A stretch of 64,000 nt of DNA, from assembly GCA_951406725.2 (NCBI GenBank), contig OX597837.1:40300001-40364000 (forward strand). The letters are read 5' to 3'. Shown here piece by piece: positions 14,601 through 55,311 of this stretch. The notes beneath the pieces are model-generated. The model was given only the letters and a program-made list of their open reading frames with translations, was not told the origin of the DNA and ran no database searches. How positions within the stretch are numbered: position 1 is the stretch's first letter; each line of letters starts with the position of its first letter. Both the position numbers and the translations under genes were made by a program. This DNA is from Octopus vulgaris. Taxonomy: Eukaryota.

Positions 14601-15371
14601 TCGGCCAGAAGTCAAAGATCAAACATGAGACGCAATGTTTCCGTCTACCAAATCCACTAGCAAGGCTTTGCAGATGACACTTGCCGAAGGTGTCACGGAG
14701 TGGGATTGAACCTGAATCCATAACGCTGGAGAGCGAGCTTCTTTGTCACACAATGACCTTCAACAGCTCACTTTCTTTTCTTCAATATGGTTGAATAGTT
14801 CTGGAAGCAGTTTCTTCCAGGAACTTTTCTCTTTACCGATATTTTTTCTCTTAAGCAACATCACAGATGTTCTCTCATTATTGGGCGATGCTGCCGGCAT
14901 ACACAGACACACACACACACACACACACAAAATGCATACTTCAGAGAGCGGCAGAAAGATCAAAAGGAATTTATACAAGACCAAAACAAATATAACATAA
15001 ACAAAAACAAAAAAAAACAGGATGAAGAGAAAAATTCTGACAAACCTAATAAAAAATAGGTAAAAAAAAAATTATAAAAGAACACGACAACAATTTAAAA
15101 TAACAAATGTTTTTGTCTTTGATGTTCGTGTCTTATAATGGCTCATAATTTTGGCTGACGGCCAGCAATTTTAACAGGAGGGAGCAGTCGATACCATTGA
15201 TTGTTATACTTGAATGGTACTTTATTGTATCGGCCCTGAGGTGGGGTGAAAGTTAAAGTTGGCTTCGGTGGGATTTGAACTCAATATGCAAACAACTGTT
15301 GCTGGTTTTTAATTAAGGCACGAATACTGAAAATTTGGAAGGAAGAAAGTAGTCAATACTCCTTTTGACTG

Positions 15372-15568
15372 TAGGAACAAGGGCTGAAATTTTACTTCGA
15401 CCCCAGTACACAGCTGGTACTTAATTTATCGACTCCGAAAGGATGAAAGGCAAAGTCGACCTCGGAGGAATTTGAACTCAGAACGTAGCAGCAGATGAAA
15501 TATCTATTTCTTTACTACCCACCAGAGGCTCAACACAGAGGAGACAAACAAGGACAGACAGACGGACA
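15372..15568 (-). mobile_element. Permuted Meta-type SINE carrying the concatemer junction
   Basis: Plus gcagatgaaatatc|tatttctttactacccac at 15504/15505 is the same junction as in the 26251 array. Confidence 0.85.
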
Positions 15569-19099: not shown

Positions 19100-19225
19100 A
19101 TTCTTTTCTACTCTAGACACAAGGCCTAATTTGGGGGGAGGGGGGCAGTTGATTAGATCGACTCCAGTACGCAACTGGTGCTTAATTTATCGAATCCGAA
19201 AGGATGAAAGGCAAAGTCGACCTCG
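19100..19225 (-). mobile_element. Meta-type SINE 3' part
   Basis: aatttatcgaatccgaaaggatgaaaggcaaagtcgacctcg. Confidence 0.8.
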
Positions 19226-26008: not shown

Positions 26009-26250
26009 AGTTCGATAAGCTGAAATTTTTTCCCATGAATACCTTACAGCCAGGGAGGGAGAGGAAGAGAGAAAGAGAGAGAGAGAATCAGAGACAGACA
26101 CACAGACACACAGACAAACATACAGACAGATAGACAGATAGATAAATAGATAGATAGAGAGATAGATAGAGGTAAGTACATATATATATGTAGATACAAA
26201 CACATATATCACGTATATACAATACACATATGCATGTATATACATATACA

Positions 26251-28837
26251 TTTCTTTACTACCCACAAGGGGCTAAACACAGAGAGGACAAACAAGGACG
26301 GACAAACGGATTAAGTCGATTATATCGACCCCAGTGCGTAACTGGTACTTAATTTATCGACCCCGAAAGGATGAAAGGCAAAGTCGACCTCGGCGGAGTT
26401 TGAACTCAGAACGTTCGGCAGACGAAATACCTATTTCTTTACTACCCACAAGGGGCTAAACACAGAGAGGACAAACAAGGACGGACAAACGGATTAAGTC
26501 GATTATATCGACCCCAGTGCGTAACTGGTACTTAATTTATCGACCCCGAAAGGATGAAAGGCAAAGTCGACCTCGGCGGAGTTTGAACTCAGAACGTTCG
26601 GCAGACGAAATACCTATTTCTTTACTACCCACAAGGGGCTAAACACAGAGAGGACAAACAAGGACAGACAAACGGATTAAGTCGATTACATCGACCCCAG
26701 TGCGTAACTGGTACTTAATTTATCGACCCCGAAAGGATGAAAGGCAAAGTCGACCTCGGCGGAGTTTGAACTCAGAACGTTCGGCAGACGAAATACCTAT
26801 TTCTTTACTACCCACAAGGGGCTAAACACAGAGAAGACAAACAAGGACAGACAAACGGATTAAGTCGATTATATCGATCCCAGTGCATAACTGGTACTTA
26901 ATTTATCGACCCCGAAAGGATGAAAGGCAAAGTCGACCTCGGCGGAGTTTGAACTCAGAACGTTCGGCAGACGAAATACCTATTTCTTTACTACCCACAA
27001 GGGGCTAAACACAGAGAAGACAAACAAGGACAGACAAACGGATTAAGTCGATTATATCGATCCCAGTGCATAACTGGTACTTAATTTATCGACCCCGAAA
27101 GGATGAAAGGCAAAGTCGACCTCGGCGGAGTTTGAACTCAGAACGTTCGGCAGACGAAATACCTATTTCTTTACTACCCACAAGGGGCTAAACACAGAGA
27201 AGACAAACAAGGACAGACAAACGGATTAAGTCGATTATATCGATCCCAGTGCATAACTGGTACTTAATTTATCGACCCCGAAAGGATGAAAGGCAAAGTC
27301 GACCTCGGCGGAGTTTGAACTCAGAACGTTCGGCAGACGAAATACCTATTTCTTTACTACCCACAAGGGGCTAAACACAGAGAAGACAAACAAGGACAGA
27401 CAAACGGATTAAGTCGATTATATCGATCCCAGTGCATAACTGGTACTTAATTTATCGACCCCGAAAGGATGAAAGGCAAAGTCGACCTCGGCGGAGTTTG
27501 AACTCAGAACGTTCGGCAGACGAAATACCTATTTCTTTACTACCCACAAGGGGCTAAACACAGAGAGAACAAACAAGGACAGACAAACGGATTAAGTCGA
27601 TTATATCGACCCCAGTGCGTAACTGGTACTTCATTTATCGACCCCGAAAGGATGAAAGGCAAAGTCGACCTCGGCGGAGTTTGAACTCAGAACGTTCGGC
27701 AGACGGAAATACCTATTTCTTTACTACCCACAAGGGGCTAAACACAGAGAGAACAAACAAGGACAGACAAACGGATTAAGTCGATTATATCGACCCCAGT
27801 GCGTAACTGGTACTTCATTTATCGACCCCGAAAGGATGAAAGGCAAAGTCGACCTCGGCGGAGTTTGAACTCAGAACGTTCGGCAGACGAAATACCTATT
27901 TCTTTACTACCCACAAGGGGCTAAACACAGAGAGAACAAACAAGGACAGACAAACGGATTAAGTCGATTATATCGACCCCAGTGCATAACTGGTACTTAA
28001 TTTATCGACCCCGAAAGGATGAAAGGCAAAGTCGACCTCGGCGGAGTTTGAACTCAGAACGTTCGGCAGACGAAATACCTATTTCTTTACTACCCACAAG
28101 GGGCTAAACACAGAGAGAACAAACAAGGACAGACAAACGGATTAAGTCGATTATATCGACCCCAGTGCATAACTGGTACTTAATTTATCGACCCCGAAAG
28201 GATGAAAGGCAAAGTCGACCTCGGCGGAGTTTGAACTCAGAACGTTCGGCAGACGAAATACCTATTTCTTTACTACCCACAAGGGGCTAAACACAGAGAG
28301 GACAAACAAGGACGGACAAACGGATTAAGTCGATTATATCGACCCCAGTGCGTAACTGGTACTTAATTTATCGACCCCGAAAGGATGAAAGGCAAAGTCG
28401 ACCTCGGCGGAGTTTGAACTCAGAACGTTCGGCAGACGAAATACCTATTTCTTTACTACCCACAAGGGGCTAAACACAGAGAGAACAAACAAGGACAGAC
28501 AAACGGATTAAGTCGATTATATCGACCCCAGTGCATAACTGGTACTTAATTTATCGACCCCGAAAGGATGAAAGGCAAAGTCGACCTCGGCGGAGTTTGA
28601 ACTCAGAACGTTCGGCAGACGAAATACCTATTTCTTTACTACCCACAAGGGGCTAAACACAGAGAAGACAAACAAGGACAGACAAACGGATTAAGTCGAT
28701 TATATCGATTCCAGTGCATAACTGGTACTTAATTTATCGACCCCAAAAGGATGAAAGGCAAAGTCGACCTCGGCGGAGTTTGAACTCAGAACGTTCGGCA
28801 GACGAAATACGGCTTCGCATTTCGCCCGGCGTGCTAC
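26251..28837 (-). repeat. Tandem array of 14 x 183-bp SINE-derived units with a single partial head
   Basis: Unit starts 26251, 26434, 26617, 26800, 26983, 27166, 27349, 27532, 27716, 27899, 28082, 28265, 28448, 28631; the unit is the 35429 SINE minus its A-box head; head remnant at 28811-28837. Confidence 0.97.
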
Positions 28838-28857
28838 TGCATGTATATACATATACT

Positions 28858-35040: not shown

Positions 35041-35428
35041 CATTCAAGAATACAAACATGTAATATCAACTATTGAACTTTCCACTTGATTTATTAATCT
35101 CACCATTCTTTACGTCTTCGATAAATTCCTTCTTTTATTGTTTTGAAGAAATTACCACAATATCAGCATCGGTGCGCAATCCTTCCTTTATTCTACCAAT
35201 CTTCAGAAGGGAGAGTCTCCTTACAAGATTCCCTATACGAAACAGTATATCAGAATTGCTTGTGTGTGTGTGTGTCTGTCTGTGTGTGTTTGTGTGTGTG
35301 TATATAGCAATCCTTCGTCAGACTATCGCGGGTGTTACGTTCCAAAACCGCTCTAAAACAATATAAATATCTATCGACCGTAGAAACCCGCGGTGTACTG
35401 AGGTGTCAGCGATATAAATTTACATATA

Positions 35429-35658
35429 GCGGCGAGCCGGCAGAAACGTTAGCGCGCCGGGCGAAATGCTTTGCGGTTTTTCGTCTGTCGTTACGTTCTG
35501 AGTTCAAATTCCGCTTAGGTCGACTTTACCTTTCATCCTTTCGGGGTCGATAAATAAAGTACCAGTTTCGCACTGGGGTCGATGTAATCGACTTACTCCC
35601 TTTGTCTGTCCTTGTTTGTCCCCTCTATGTTTAGCCCCTTGTGGGTAGTAAAGAAATA
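35429..35658 (+). mobile_element. Full-length Meta-type tRNA SINE monomer with 18-21-bp TSD
   Basis: TSD gatataaatttacatata(gcg) at 35411-35428 and 35659-35676; B-box gagttcaaattcc; core cctttcatcctttcggggtcgataaa resembles the MetaSINE domain. Confidence 0.95.
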
Positions 35659-35925
35659 GATATAAATTTACATATAGCGAGACAAATCCGAGTGCGTGAT
35701 GATAGATGAACCGCGAAATGGCGAGTATTTCGTTTGATTAATTTTAATACTTCAGCTATTTAATGCTTTCTTTGGGGCCTACAATCGCCAATATTACTGA
35801 TTCTCTTATTTTTAAATTGCTACAATCGATAGTAATTGAGTCAATATATTCGCAAATTATTTCTTCGTAATTTACTTGCTCTGTATATACACACACACAC
35901 ACACATATATATGTGTGTATAAATA

Positions 35926-36875: not shown

Positions 36876-37180
36876 CGTCCAGGTCTCACTTCCATACAGT
36901 AGAGTGCTGAGCACACATGGCTGGTAGATTTTCATTTTCGGGGTCTTGGTCAGCTTATTGTTGTCCCAAGCCCGTTTGGAGAGTTTGGACGCTATACACA
37001 CGCCAAGAGCGTCGCCTAAATATCTTTCACCAGCGCTGCCTCCGAAAAATCCTCCGCATCAAATGGCAGAATCATATCCCCAACAAAAATGTCCTCAGAC
37101 AAGCAGGAATACCAAGCATGTTTGCACTCCTCACACAAAGACGTATGAGATGGCTTGGGCATGTTAGCCGTATGGATAGG
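36871..37180 (+). pseudogene. RTE/BovB-like LINE RT fragment with 5' inversion
   Basis: Minus 36871-36985 SKLSKRAWDNNKLTKTPKMKIYQPCVLSTLLYGSETWTLY continues on plus from 36986 as WTLYTRQERRLNIFHQRCLRKILRIKWQ...RWLGHVSRMD. Confidence 0.92.
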
Positions 37181-37984
37181 ACTACACAGCCACAGCAGGA
37201 AATGTATCAGGACATGAAATATAAAAGCCGGACTAGACTACTATATGCGCAACTCCATTGTCTCCCGAGACAGAAAGGATGCCAACAATAATATATATAT
37301 ATAGAGAGATTCGTGTTGGATAGGTGCTAACAAGCGAAACTCGATCCTTATTGCTAAGAATTAATATATGTATATATTTATAAATACTGTTGTTATGGTG
37401 GTGTTGAGGGTGGTGATGCTGCGTTTGTTGTTGTTGTTGGAGAAAGTTTTGTTCATGCTCTCTCACAAGGGGACGAATGGCGGGGATGTGCCCTTAAACC
37501 AGAGAACCTGCCCGATTACCTATAACACCATCGTCCCCGTACCCAGGCCTCCCGAGACTCCAGATGGTTGTATTGGAACAGAGGACGCATTAACTACCAC
37601 TTAGGTAGGCCACTTAGTGGAGGCGCAATGGCCCAGTACCTGTATTTCAAGGGACCGGCGTTGTCACTCTCGGTGGTATTTGAACTCAGAGTACAGAAAC
37701 TCAGAACAAACGCTGCGAAACGTTCTCTCCGACAATCCACGGTCTCCACCCAAATGTCTTCAACAAGTCTACCAGCCTTTCTGTACCAATCTCTCTGTTC
37801 TAGAATTCCAAACTTGAATTTCCTATACAAGACAATCGATATAATTACCAATTTTTTTTCTGAAATTACGTAATAAAATTTACAGATCAGGTTCTTTCGA
37901 GGTATCGATTACCTGGTAACACCTACGCACACACACACACCTACACAATATTTTACGTACGCGTTTGTACATGTTTGCATACCT

Positions 37985-45189: not shown

Positions 45190-45372
45190 ATTTGTGTGTC
45201 TGTGTTTGTCCCCCCAACATCGCTTGACAACCGATGCTAGTGTCTTTACGTCCCCGACAGAATAAGTATTAGGCTTACAAAGAATAAGTCCTGGATCGAT
45301 TCGCTCGACTCAAGGCGGATGCTCCAGCATGGCCGCAGTCAAATGACTGAAACAAGTAGAAGAGTAAATGAG
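45010..45372 (+). mobile_element. SINE S3, 5'-truncated
   Basis: Aligns to 54891-55311. Confidence 0.88.
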
Positions 45373-48342: not shown

Positions 48343-48586
48343 TCTTTTACTCTTTTACTTGGTTCAGTCATTTGACTGTAGCCATGCTGGAGCACCGCCA
48401 TTAGTCAAGCAAATCGACCCCAGGACTACTTCTTTGTAAGCCTAGTACTTATTCTATCGGCCTCTTGTGTCGAACCGCTAGGTTACGGGGACGTAAACAC
48501 ATCAGCATCGGTTGTCAAGTGATGTTGGGGGCACAAACACAGACACACAAACATATACACACATACATACACATATATATATATAA

Positions 48587-55090: not shown

Positions 55091-55311
55091 ATGTTTGTGT
55101 GTCTGCGTTTGTCCCCCTAGCATTGCTTGACAACCGATGCTGGTGGGTTTACGTCGTCGTCACTTAGCGGTTCGGCAAAAGAGACCGATAGAATAAGTAG
55201 TGGGCTTACAAAAGAATAAGTCCCGGGGTCGAGTTGCTCGATTAAATGCGGTGCTCCAGCATGGCTGCAGTCAAATGACTGAAAAAAGTAAAAGAGTAAA
55301 AGAGTAAAAGA
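54891..55311 (+). mobile_element. SINE S3, full length
   Basis: tRNA-like head, internal (TA)(TG) tract, tail gcggtgctccagcatggctgcagtcaaatgactgaaa...(gtaaaaga)n. Confidence 0.92.

Follow-up and report, generated by a model that had tools for sequence, protein, structure and literature searches.

Architecture of the SINE-derived array

The window analysed here is a stretch of 64,000 nucleotides of Octopus vulgaris DNA (assembly GCA_951406725.2, contig OX597837.1, positions 40,300,001 to 40,364,000 of the forward strand), and all coordinates refer to it. It is extremely rich in microsatellites (192 Tandem Repeats Finder rows, with ACT, ATG and TGTA runs of at least 600 bases), and we take its combination of microsatellites and SINEs to resemble octopus DNA and octopus SINEs. 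tRNA-derived SINEs of octopus were reportedly described by Ohshima and Okada in 1994. Between 26250 and 28811 on the minus strand, 14 SINE units follow each other head to tail and are connected by 13 tail-to-hairpin junctions. The array, its flanking target-site duplications (TSDs) and two further loci of the window are listed below.

28838..28856, minus strand: 5' copy of a 19-bp TSD, an exact match to 26231-26249
28812..28836, minus strand: 5'-truncated SINE head (monomer positions 22-46), comprising the 5' arm and loop of the head hairpin
28629..28811, minus strand: leading unit 1 with the 3' hairpin arm, a B-box-like motif, core and tail 1
26432..28628, minus strand: units 2-13, head-less, 183 bp each (unit 7: 184 bp)
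26250..26431, minus strand: trailing unit 14, 182 bp, lacking the terminal A and directly adjoining the TSD
26231..26249, minus strand: 3' copy of the 19-bp TSD, an exact match to 28838-28856
about 15350-15566 (start also placed at 15330), minus strand: older junction locus with tail 1, junction, head-less core and tail 2
35429..35658, plus strand: full-length monomer of the same family, 230 bp, which defines head and tail 1

Tandem Repeats Finder placed the array at 26250-28810, with a period of 183, 14.0 copies and 98% matches. This agrees in period and copy number with the 14 units of 183 bp described in the initial annotation, with two exceptions in length, unit 14 (182 bp) and unit 7 (184 bp). 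The 12 middle units (units 2-13) start with GGTATTT, end with GTAAAGAAATA and correspond to positions 47-230 of the monomer at 35429-35658, i.e. to 183 of its 230 bases. Tails are complete, and the earlier statement that the units run to the natural SINE 3' end needs correction only for unit 14, which lacks the final A. A 19-mer spanning the junction matches 13 times within the array, 12 times exactly and once with a 1-base insertion at 27703-27721, against zero matches expected by chance (100 shuffles).

As the initial annotation had noticed, one partial head caps the whole array; it covers monomer positions 22-46 at 28812-28836. The 21 monomer bases that it lacks contain an A-box-like stretch, which was recognised by eye (a regular expression found none), and the array locus itself is therefore probably not a Pol III source. 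Pol III usually terminates at a run of four T residues (T4). Seven T3 runs but no T4 run occur in the units, the exception being a T4 run at 28745-28748 (minus strand) in unit 1, the sole one of the array, which stems from a private change and is a possible Pol III terminator. This exception aside, the absence of T4 runs would make Pol III read-through of many units possible. In the loop of the array's head (28812-28817, minus strand), about three of six bases, at the junction register, differ from the family majority, whose letters were taken from loose ends of public contigs; the stem is intact.

Target-site duplications and the reference monomer

The 19-bp TSD around the whole array is an addition to the initial description. 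Its 3' copy immediately follows the last tail and a single base separates its 5' copy from the clipped head; the window contains no further copies of this 19-mer. When up to 200000 random pairs of purine/pyrimidine-alternating sequences were compared, 213 (about 0.1%) shared an exact 19-mer. No TSDs were found between the array units. The single enclosing TSD together with the 5'-clipped head is the footprint of one retrotransposition event. The initial annotation had proposed a polarised array that grows by repeated retrotransposition, and the presence of one enclosing TSD and no internal ones does not support this proposal.

The monomer at 35429-35658 is flanked by a 21-bp TSD (35411-35431 and 35659-35679), which fixes the natural 3' end of the SINE at the tail end previously assigned from the same copy. 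Its identity to the array units is about 91%, and 13 fixed alignment columns differ. About a dozen fragments in the window are dispersed relatives of the monomer. Older relatives that share head and core (73-87%) are located at 467-605, 1977, 8928, 15215-15283, 19139, 23600, 52051 and 59282, and in the copy at 467-605 part of the core is repeated internally. Some of tail 1 may have been captured from another dispersed repeat: the first 23 bases of tail 1 (35601-35623) resemble 45191-45213, 48529-48551 and 55094-55116 (83-87%, E 0.009-0.076), which are stretches of that repeat and adjoin TG microsatellites. A 126-codon open frame at 36911-37291 (plus strand) is cut off before any 3' tail; it resembles the C-terminal portion of RTE-type LINE proteins but gave no Pfam match, and thus yielded no partner LINE.

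Complementarity at the breakpoint and predicted RNA folding

Together with the start of the adjoining unit, head positions 22-46 are predicted to form a hairpin of 13 bp (z -2.8). The unit starts with the base that immediately follows the predicted loop on its 3' side, which bears out the earlier placement of the unit start at the loop edge. Two short matches connect the tail end with this hairpin. One is a direct match of 5 nt (GAAAT) to the 5' arm, the other an inverted match of 6 nt between the tail sequence GAAATA and TATTTC at +3 of the unit (unit bases 3-8), and the latter is the only site in head and unit that is the reverse complement of the tail hexamer. The initial annotation had seen no extended homology between tail end and junction; this holds for extended direct homology, but the 5-nt direct and the 6-nt inverted match had escaped notice. 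Once the junction is present, the whole 183-bp unit provides homology, so that the missing junction homology has to be explained only once.

The direct match invites a purely local explanation, in which a monomer inserted and was duplicated by microhomology slippage, with other junction loci arising likewise and independently. Local homogenisation of the units, described below, would fit such an origin as well. However, slippage at GAAAT would retain the loop and yield a unit about six bases longer, so that direct homology predicts a junction different from the observed one, which drops the loop. Furthermore, independent events are unlikely to have produced a register that agrees to the base with that of a diverged locus and of other organisms (see below), and we consider local slippage very improbable as the source of the array.

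The inverted match leads to a different prediction. In the 12 internal units, which are head-less, the tail hexamer is predicted to pair with unit bases 3-8 with a probability of 0.40-0.74, and the value of 0.58 for unit 13 was reached by 9 of 300 shuffles. Predicted tail pairing is 0.16 in unit 14, where the final A is missing, and 0.0 when the head is present, as the 3' arm is then fully occupied by the 5' arm. The leading unit could begin at 148 positions; nine of them gave a predicted end pairing above 0.3, and these starts span loop and junction. The pairing of tail and 3' arm is a post hoc prediction of modest significance (about 3-6%). It suggests that the joint may have originated at the RNA level, where template jumping or ligation would have acted on an RNA that had been cut in the loop and had its ends held together. 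The template-jump and circular-RNA routes offered in the initial annotation thereby gain a structural rationale.

A more far-reaching version of this idea is recurrent RNA-level joining. Transcripts cut in the loop would carry the tail paired beside the new 5' end, and joining would proceed by a jump of the reverse transcriptase (RT) or through a 183-nt circle and rolling copying. The restriction of the predicted pairing to head-less units and the position of the junction among the nine favourable starts are in line with it. Letters that are private to the array and shared by its units (see below) would be explicable by a single template, and R2 and L1 undergo template jumps in vivo, as stated in the accessible part of PMC3414825. 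On the other hand, the array opens with a head fragment, which a circle would not contain, and the differences between units come in blocks instead of being uniform. The monomer, which is mutated in the 3' arm, reaches a predicted pairing of only 0.15 at the junction start. The fold of the unit is no more stable than that of shuffled sequences (z 0.28), which also applies to the other whole-unit and whole-monomer folds (z -0.98 and -0.63), and the junction hairpin is likewise no better than shuffles (z -0.51 and 0.02). No ribozyme was found: no Rfam ribozyme family matched at E values up to 10, with only chance-level Rfam matches (E 2.8-4.7), and hammerhead and HDV-like descriptors gave zero matches, the hammerhead core being searched on both strands. 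The pairing was found post hoc and fits a one-time origin equally well, and we regard recurrent RNA-level joining as rather unlikely.

The ordinary 3' flanks of the monomer (35659-35668, plus strand) and of the array (26240-26249, minus strand) both have G as first base and match the reverse complement of the tail from +3. The matches are 3 and 2 bases long (n=2) and lie in the same register as at the junction, where the match comprises 6 bases, which hints at a repeatable rule.

A second junction locus in the window

A 14th match to the junction 19-mer lies outside the array at 15494-15512. Here, a 62-nt, 5'-clipped tail 1 is followed by the junction in the register of the array, and 154 of 174 aligned bases (88.5%) match a dimer of array units, but the private letters of the array are absent. 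Thus, the junction, annotated initially as fixed, recurs at an unlinked locus. Tail 2 of this locus is also found in copies near 19139, 23600, 52051 and 59282; among the older relatives, those near 1977, 8928, 19139, 23600, 52051 and 59282 bear tail 2. A head upstream of locus 15350-15566 was not found, and a TSD search was negative for this locus and for three copies with tail 2, while a fourth gave a weak 8-mer. The composition of locus 15350-15566 suggests a putative dimeric SINE subfamily with two different tails.

The initial annotation had held that descent of all junction-bearing loci from one segmental duplication with shared flanks would speak against its idea. In the window, no such shared flanks were found: the flanks of the array and of locus 15350-15566 have seven BLAST matches in common, all of which are dinucleotide microsatellites.

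The junction in public sequencing contigs

Among the 24 rows listed for public sequencing runs, 14 contained 0.92-1.00 of the sampled words, and these came from three organisms; rows with low shares from insect, termite, invertebrate and marine metagenomes were left out of the evidence. Contigs were aligned to the head and unit 1 for four runs, X1 and X3 (organism A), X6 (organism B) and X7 (organism C), of which X3 is, as a guess, probably RNA. Per run, at least 52,726 to at least 274,784 distinct contigs matched one unit at 85% identity or more, a number that includes sister families and does not represent copy number. Most contigs of the family are 90-95% identical to unit 1. The depth of contigs over the head versus the body was set aside, as it gives no copy number and is biased by the odd loop and the private indel of the array.

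Among the best 15 of 216 joints, the joint of the tail end (28629) to 28794 was represented by most contigs in each run, with at least 25, 21, 26 and 11 contigs in X1, X6, X7 and X3, respectively. This joint is read as the canonical junction, the first 17 letters of which would be unaligned because of the private indel of the array. Of the best 12 of 504 rows that display the letters between the joined parts, eight end at the tail, and five of these open with the canonical junction letters, several in diverged form. The canonical rows among those listed derive from X1, X3 and X7, with none for X6. The other three tail-ending rows listed consist of a single ambiguous letter, an unrelated sequence and a joint to head position 15. 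In X3, at least 38 contigs have a loose end at 28810 that shows the canonical junction. Other joints exist too: among those listed, the tail is joined to head position 22 or earlier in at least 6, at least 6, at least 13 and 0 contigs of X1, X6, X7 and X3, respectively, and further joints are listed at 28765, 28787 and 28795, for which the letters between are not displayed. The canonical joint leads the listed joints in four of four runs and three organisms, as expected for the fixed junction that had been annotated. The junction is therefore likely fixed, old and family-wide, although non-canonical tail joints also occur.

No contig or long read was seen that spans the array, and the contigs were aligned to unit 1 with the head only, so that an assembly artefact might affect the number of units or a portion of the array. 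Such an artefact is extremely improbable, given that the ten variable sites form block-like haplotypes, that both ends are flanked by an exact TSD and that the junction occurs in independent runs.

Variation among the units

The ten variable sites result in a mean pairwise difference of 1.75% among the array units, compared with about 9% to the monomer. Units 8-11, 13-14 and 4-5 form blocks of identical sequence, and units 6-7 are alike. The haplotypes of units 1-14 follow the interleaved order A' B C B B D D A A A A E C C. Neighbouring units are closer to each other than in permuted orders (p=0.004) and identical adjacent units are enriched (5 of 13, p=0.011), while the overall Mantel test was not significant (r 0.13, p=0.12). 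No polarity was detected along the array, as the distance from the majority unit did not change with position (Spearman 0.07, p=0.81). One informative column pair displays all four gametes; column 95 of this pair is a CpG site, and being CpG it could reflect recurrent mutation.

Two positions set the units apart from most of the family. At 28778, 97% of the depth in run X1 has another letter, and all 14 units carry the rare state. At 28795, most copies of the family have a mismatch and an insertion, and again the rare state is common to all 14 units. These family-rare letters in every unit indicate descent from one founder. Combined with the similarity of neighbours, the lack of polarity and the head that lacks 21 bases, they argue against serial polarised addition. 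The growth by polarised steps that was initially proposed is thus supported neither by the letters common to all units nor by the unit order, in which identical neighbours cluster and no gradient is present. The pattern favours the insertion of one multimer followed by local unequal exchange; interleaved haplotypes would be equally expected if a varied source array had been copied as a whole. It is not the variation that serial capture of transcripts from many loci leaves behind.

These data bear directly on a self-targeting mode of growth, in which the endonuclease of the partner LINE would nick existing copies at the loop edge and new copies would be joined seamlessly through homology, so that the array gains single units behind the head. 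Such a mode would account for a fixed junction located at the natural 3' end, for the two ordinary 3' flanks that start with G and match the tail complement from +3, and for locus 15350-15566, in which tail 1 is linked to a copy that carries a different tail. However, the flank match is weak and lies in AT-rich microsatellite DNA, the second locus lacks the upstream head that insertion into an intact copy would leave, and the array has no polarity, no internal TSDs and units that do not sample the diversity of the family. Self-targeting is therefore quite improbable. A target-specific, self-inserting retroelement would be expected to leave independently inserted units, with their own TSDs or distinct source haplotypes and a gradient of age, which the shared private letters, the missing gradient and the absence of internal TSDs do not bear out.

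Proposed history of the array

The tandem array is SINE-derived and shares its tail-to-hairpin junction with other loci. This joint is likely old and inherited, and the array was likely inserted once as a multimer and likely lengthened afterwards by unequal exchange. The first step would have been a fusion of the tail end to the head hairpin at the 3' side of its loop, which took place on one or a few occasions in the history of the family, and folding predictions suggest that the joining place was probably chosen through pairing of the last six bases of the tail with the freed 3' arm. A single template jump that founds a subfamily has been proposed for R2 with U12 in the accessible part of PMC3414825. 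In a second step, junction copies with a full head would be read through by Pol III and the multimer RNA would be copied from its tail end; a full-head multimer as source locus was not seen in the window. Insertion of the multimer would then occur by target-primed reverse transcription through the enzyme of a partner LINE, leaving a TSD and a clipped 5' end, and the single TSD and the 5'-clipped head at the array locus are the observed footprint of this third step. Finally, the variant pattern suggests that the units increased in number and recombined with one another as DNA within the locus, with 183 bp serving as homology. Exchange in the shared core would also yield the chimera of tail 1, junction, core and tail 2 at 15350-15566. 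In the accessible part of PMC10702118 (Vassetzky et al. 2023), unequal recombination has been proposed for squamate SINE-derived satellites (sSat), which have an extended unit at their end.

The conversion of SINEs to satellites has been described in reptiles and clams, and the array bears on its first step and on the reason for fixed breakpoints. The breakpoint described here is base-exact, old and present in three organisms, and it coincides with the only site that is complementary to the tail end. If the joint was merely inherited, the array adds one more mobile SINE multimer to those known. If the joint re-forms, it would define a ribozyme-free RNA route from a retroposon to a satellite. 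Based on the folding predictions, the SINE might in that case encode a multimerisation switch that works without a ribozyme, in which a cut in the loop frees the 3' arm and the tail pairs beside the new 5' end, a proposal that we consider tentative and rather unlikely. It is similarly doubtful that a partner RT, or an RNA ligase acting through a 183-nt circle, would use this switch repeatedly and yield T4-free retrotransposable concatemers that seed satellites genome-wide.

Comparison with known SINE-derived systems

The TSD-bounded monomer of 230 bp and its dispersed fragments are short (<1 kb) and interspersed, as in the definition of SINEs in the accessible part of PMC3531059, whereas the array, being tandem, is a SINE derivative and not a SINE proper. 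The same part of PMC3531059 names an identity of at least 60% to tRNA, 5S or 7SL RNA over 60 nt as a criterion for SINEs. ARAGORN detected zero tRNA genes in the window, no Rfam tRNA match was obtained and the A-box regular expression had no match, but a B-box-like motif is present at monomer position 72, and judging from this motif, a tRNA origin of the head is likely. Core motifs were not found in one supplement file of PMC4824008, save one 6-letter match, and an assignment to the MetaSINEs was not supported by this comparison.

SINEs constitute 11.6% of the O. vulgaris assembly according to the accessible part of PMC13282606. The array is not mentioned in the accessible parts of this paper and its supplement, of PMC8967140 and of PMC4758252, and four 17-letter motifs of the array occurred in no paper searched. 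Array and junction are undescribed in the literature searched; repeat libraries, subscription papers, figure alignments and bioRxiv supplements were beyond reach and may contain them. Scans of metagenome and viral collections gave zero matches, and so did one scan of a prokaryote genome collection. A second scan of this collection returned six single 19-mer matches in unrelated bacteria, which were treated as chance, since about four are expected from the size of the collection.

Short tandem units in animal genomes are also a property of the non-LTR retrozymes (bioRxiv 10.64898/2026.07.22.740005), which, according to the accessible part of that preprint, carry a type I hammerhead in each unit and are proposed to move through circular RNA. 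This assignment was rejected, because no hammerhead core was found on either strand.

Complex SINEs, such as Alu, B1-dID and the Dip/B1 multimers (PMC3531059, PMC10702118, accessible parts), resemble the array in that fused units are propagated as one element, and the locus with tail 1, core and tail 2 is similar to the dimeric SINEs of PMC3531059. Different from the complex SINEs described in the accessible part of the latter, the later units of the array lack the first 46 bases and their number is open-ended; propagation as a dimeric family is, moreover, inferred in our case.

A closer parallel in several respects is provided by the squamate sSat, as described in the accessible part of PMC10702118. 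There too, the tandem unit is shorter than the SINE, a longer terminal unit extends towards the SINE terminus (here the leading unit, with positions 22-46), and the units are far more alike than dispersed copies (here 1.75% versus about 9% to the monomer). The sSat3Ati2 unit of 179 nt begins where the head ends and extends across the LINE-derived region; unit limits are fixed across loci in some taxa, and the satellites have a subtelomeric tendency. In contrast to the array, neither an array TSD nor a structural reason for the breakpoint is described in that part of the paper for the satellites reported for reptile Squam1-3, and the unit analysed here extends exactly from the natural tail end to the edge of a complementary hairpin loop.

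Like the TSD1-(SINE)n-TSD1 arrays of the blood clam Scapharca broughtonii (Martelossi et al. 2024, PMC11481361, accessible part), the octopus array is enclosed by a single TSD, and no TSDs separate its units. These mollusc multimers contain 4-15 units, of which the first has more of the head and the later ones share one head truncation. Their internal units are truncated at the tail too, as in an internal duplication, whereas the tails of the octopus units are complete. Thus, the array belongs to a class that is already known from SINE-derived satellites and TSD-(SINE)n-TSD arrays, and the complementary fixed junction is its new twist.
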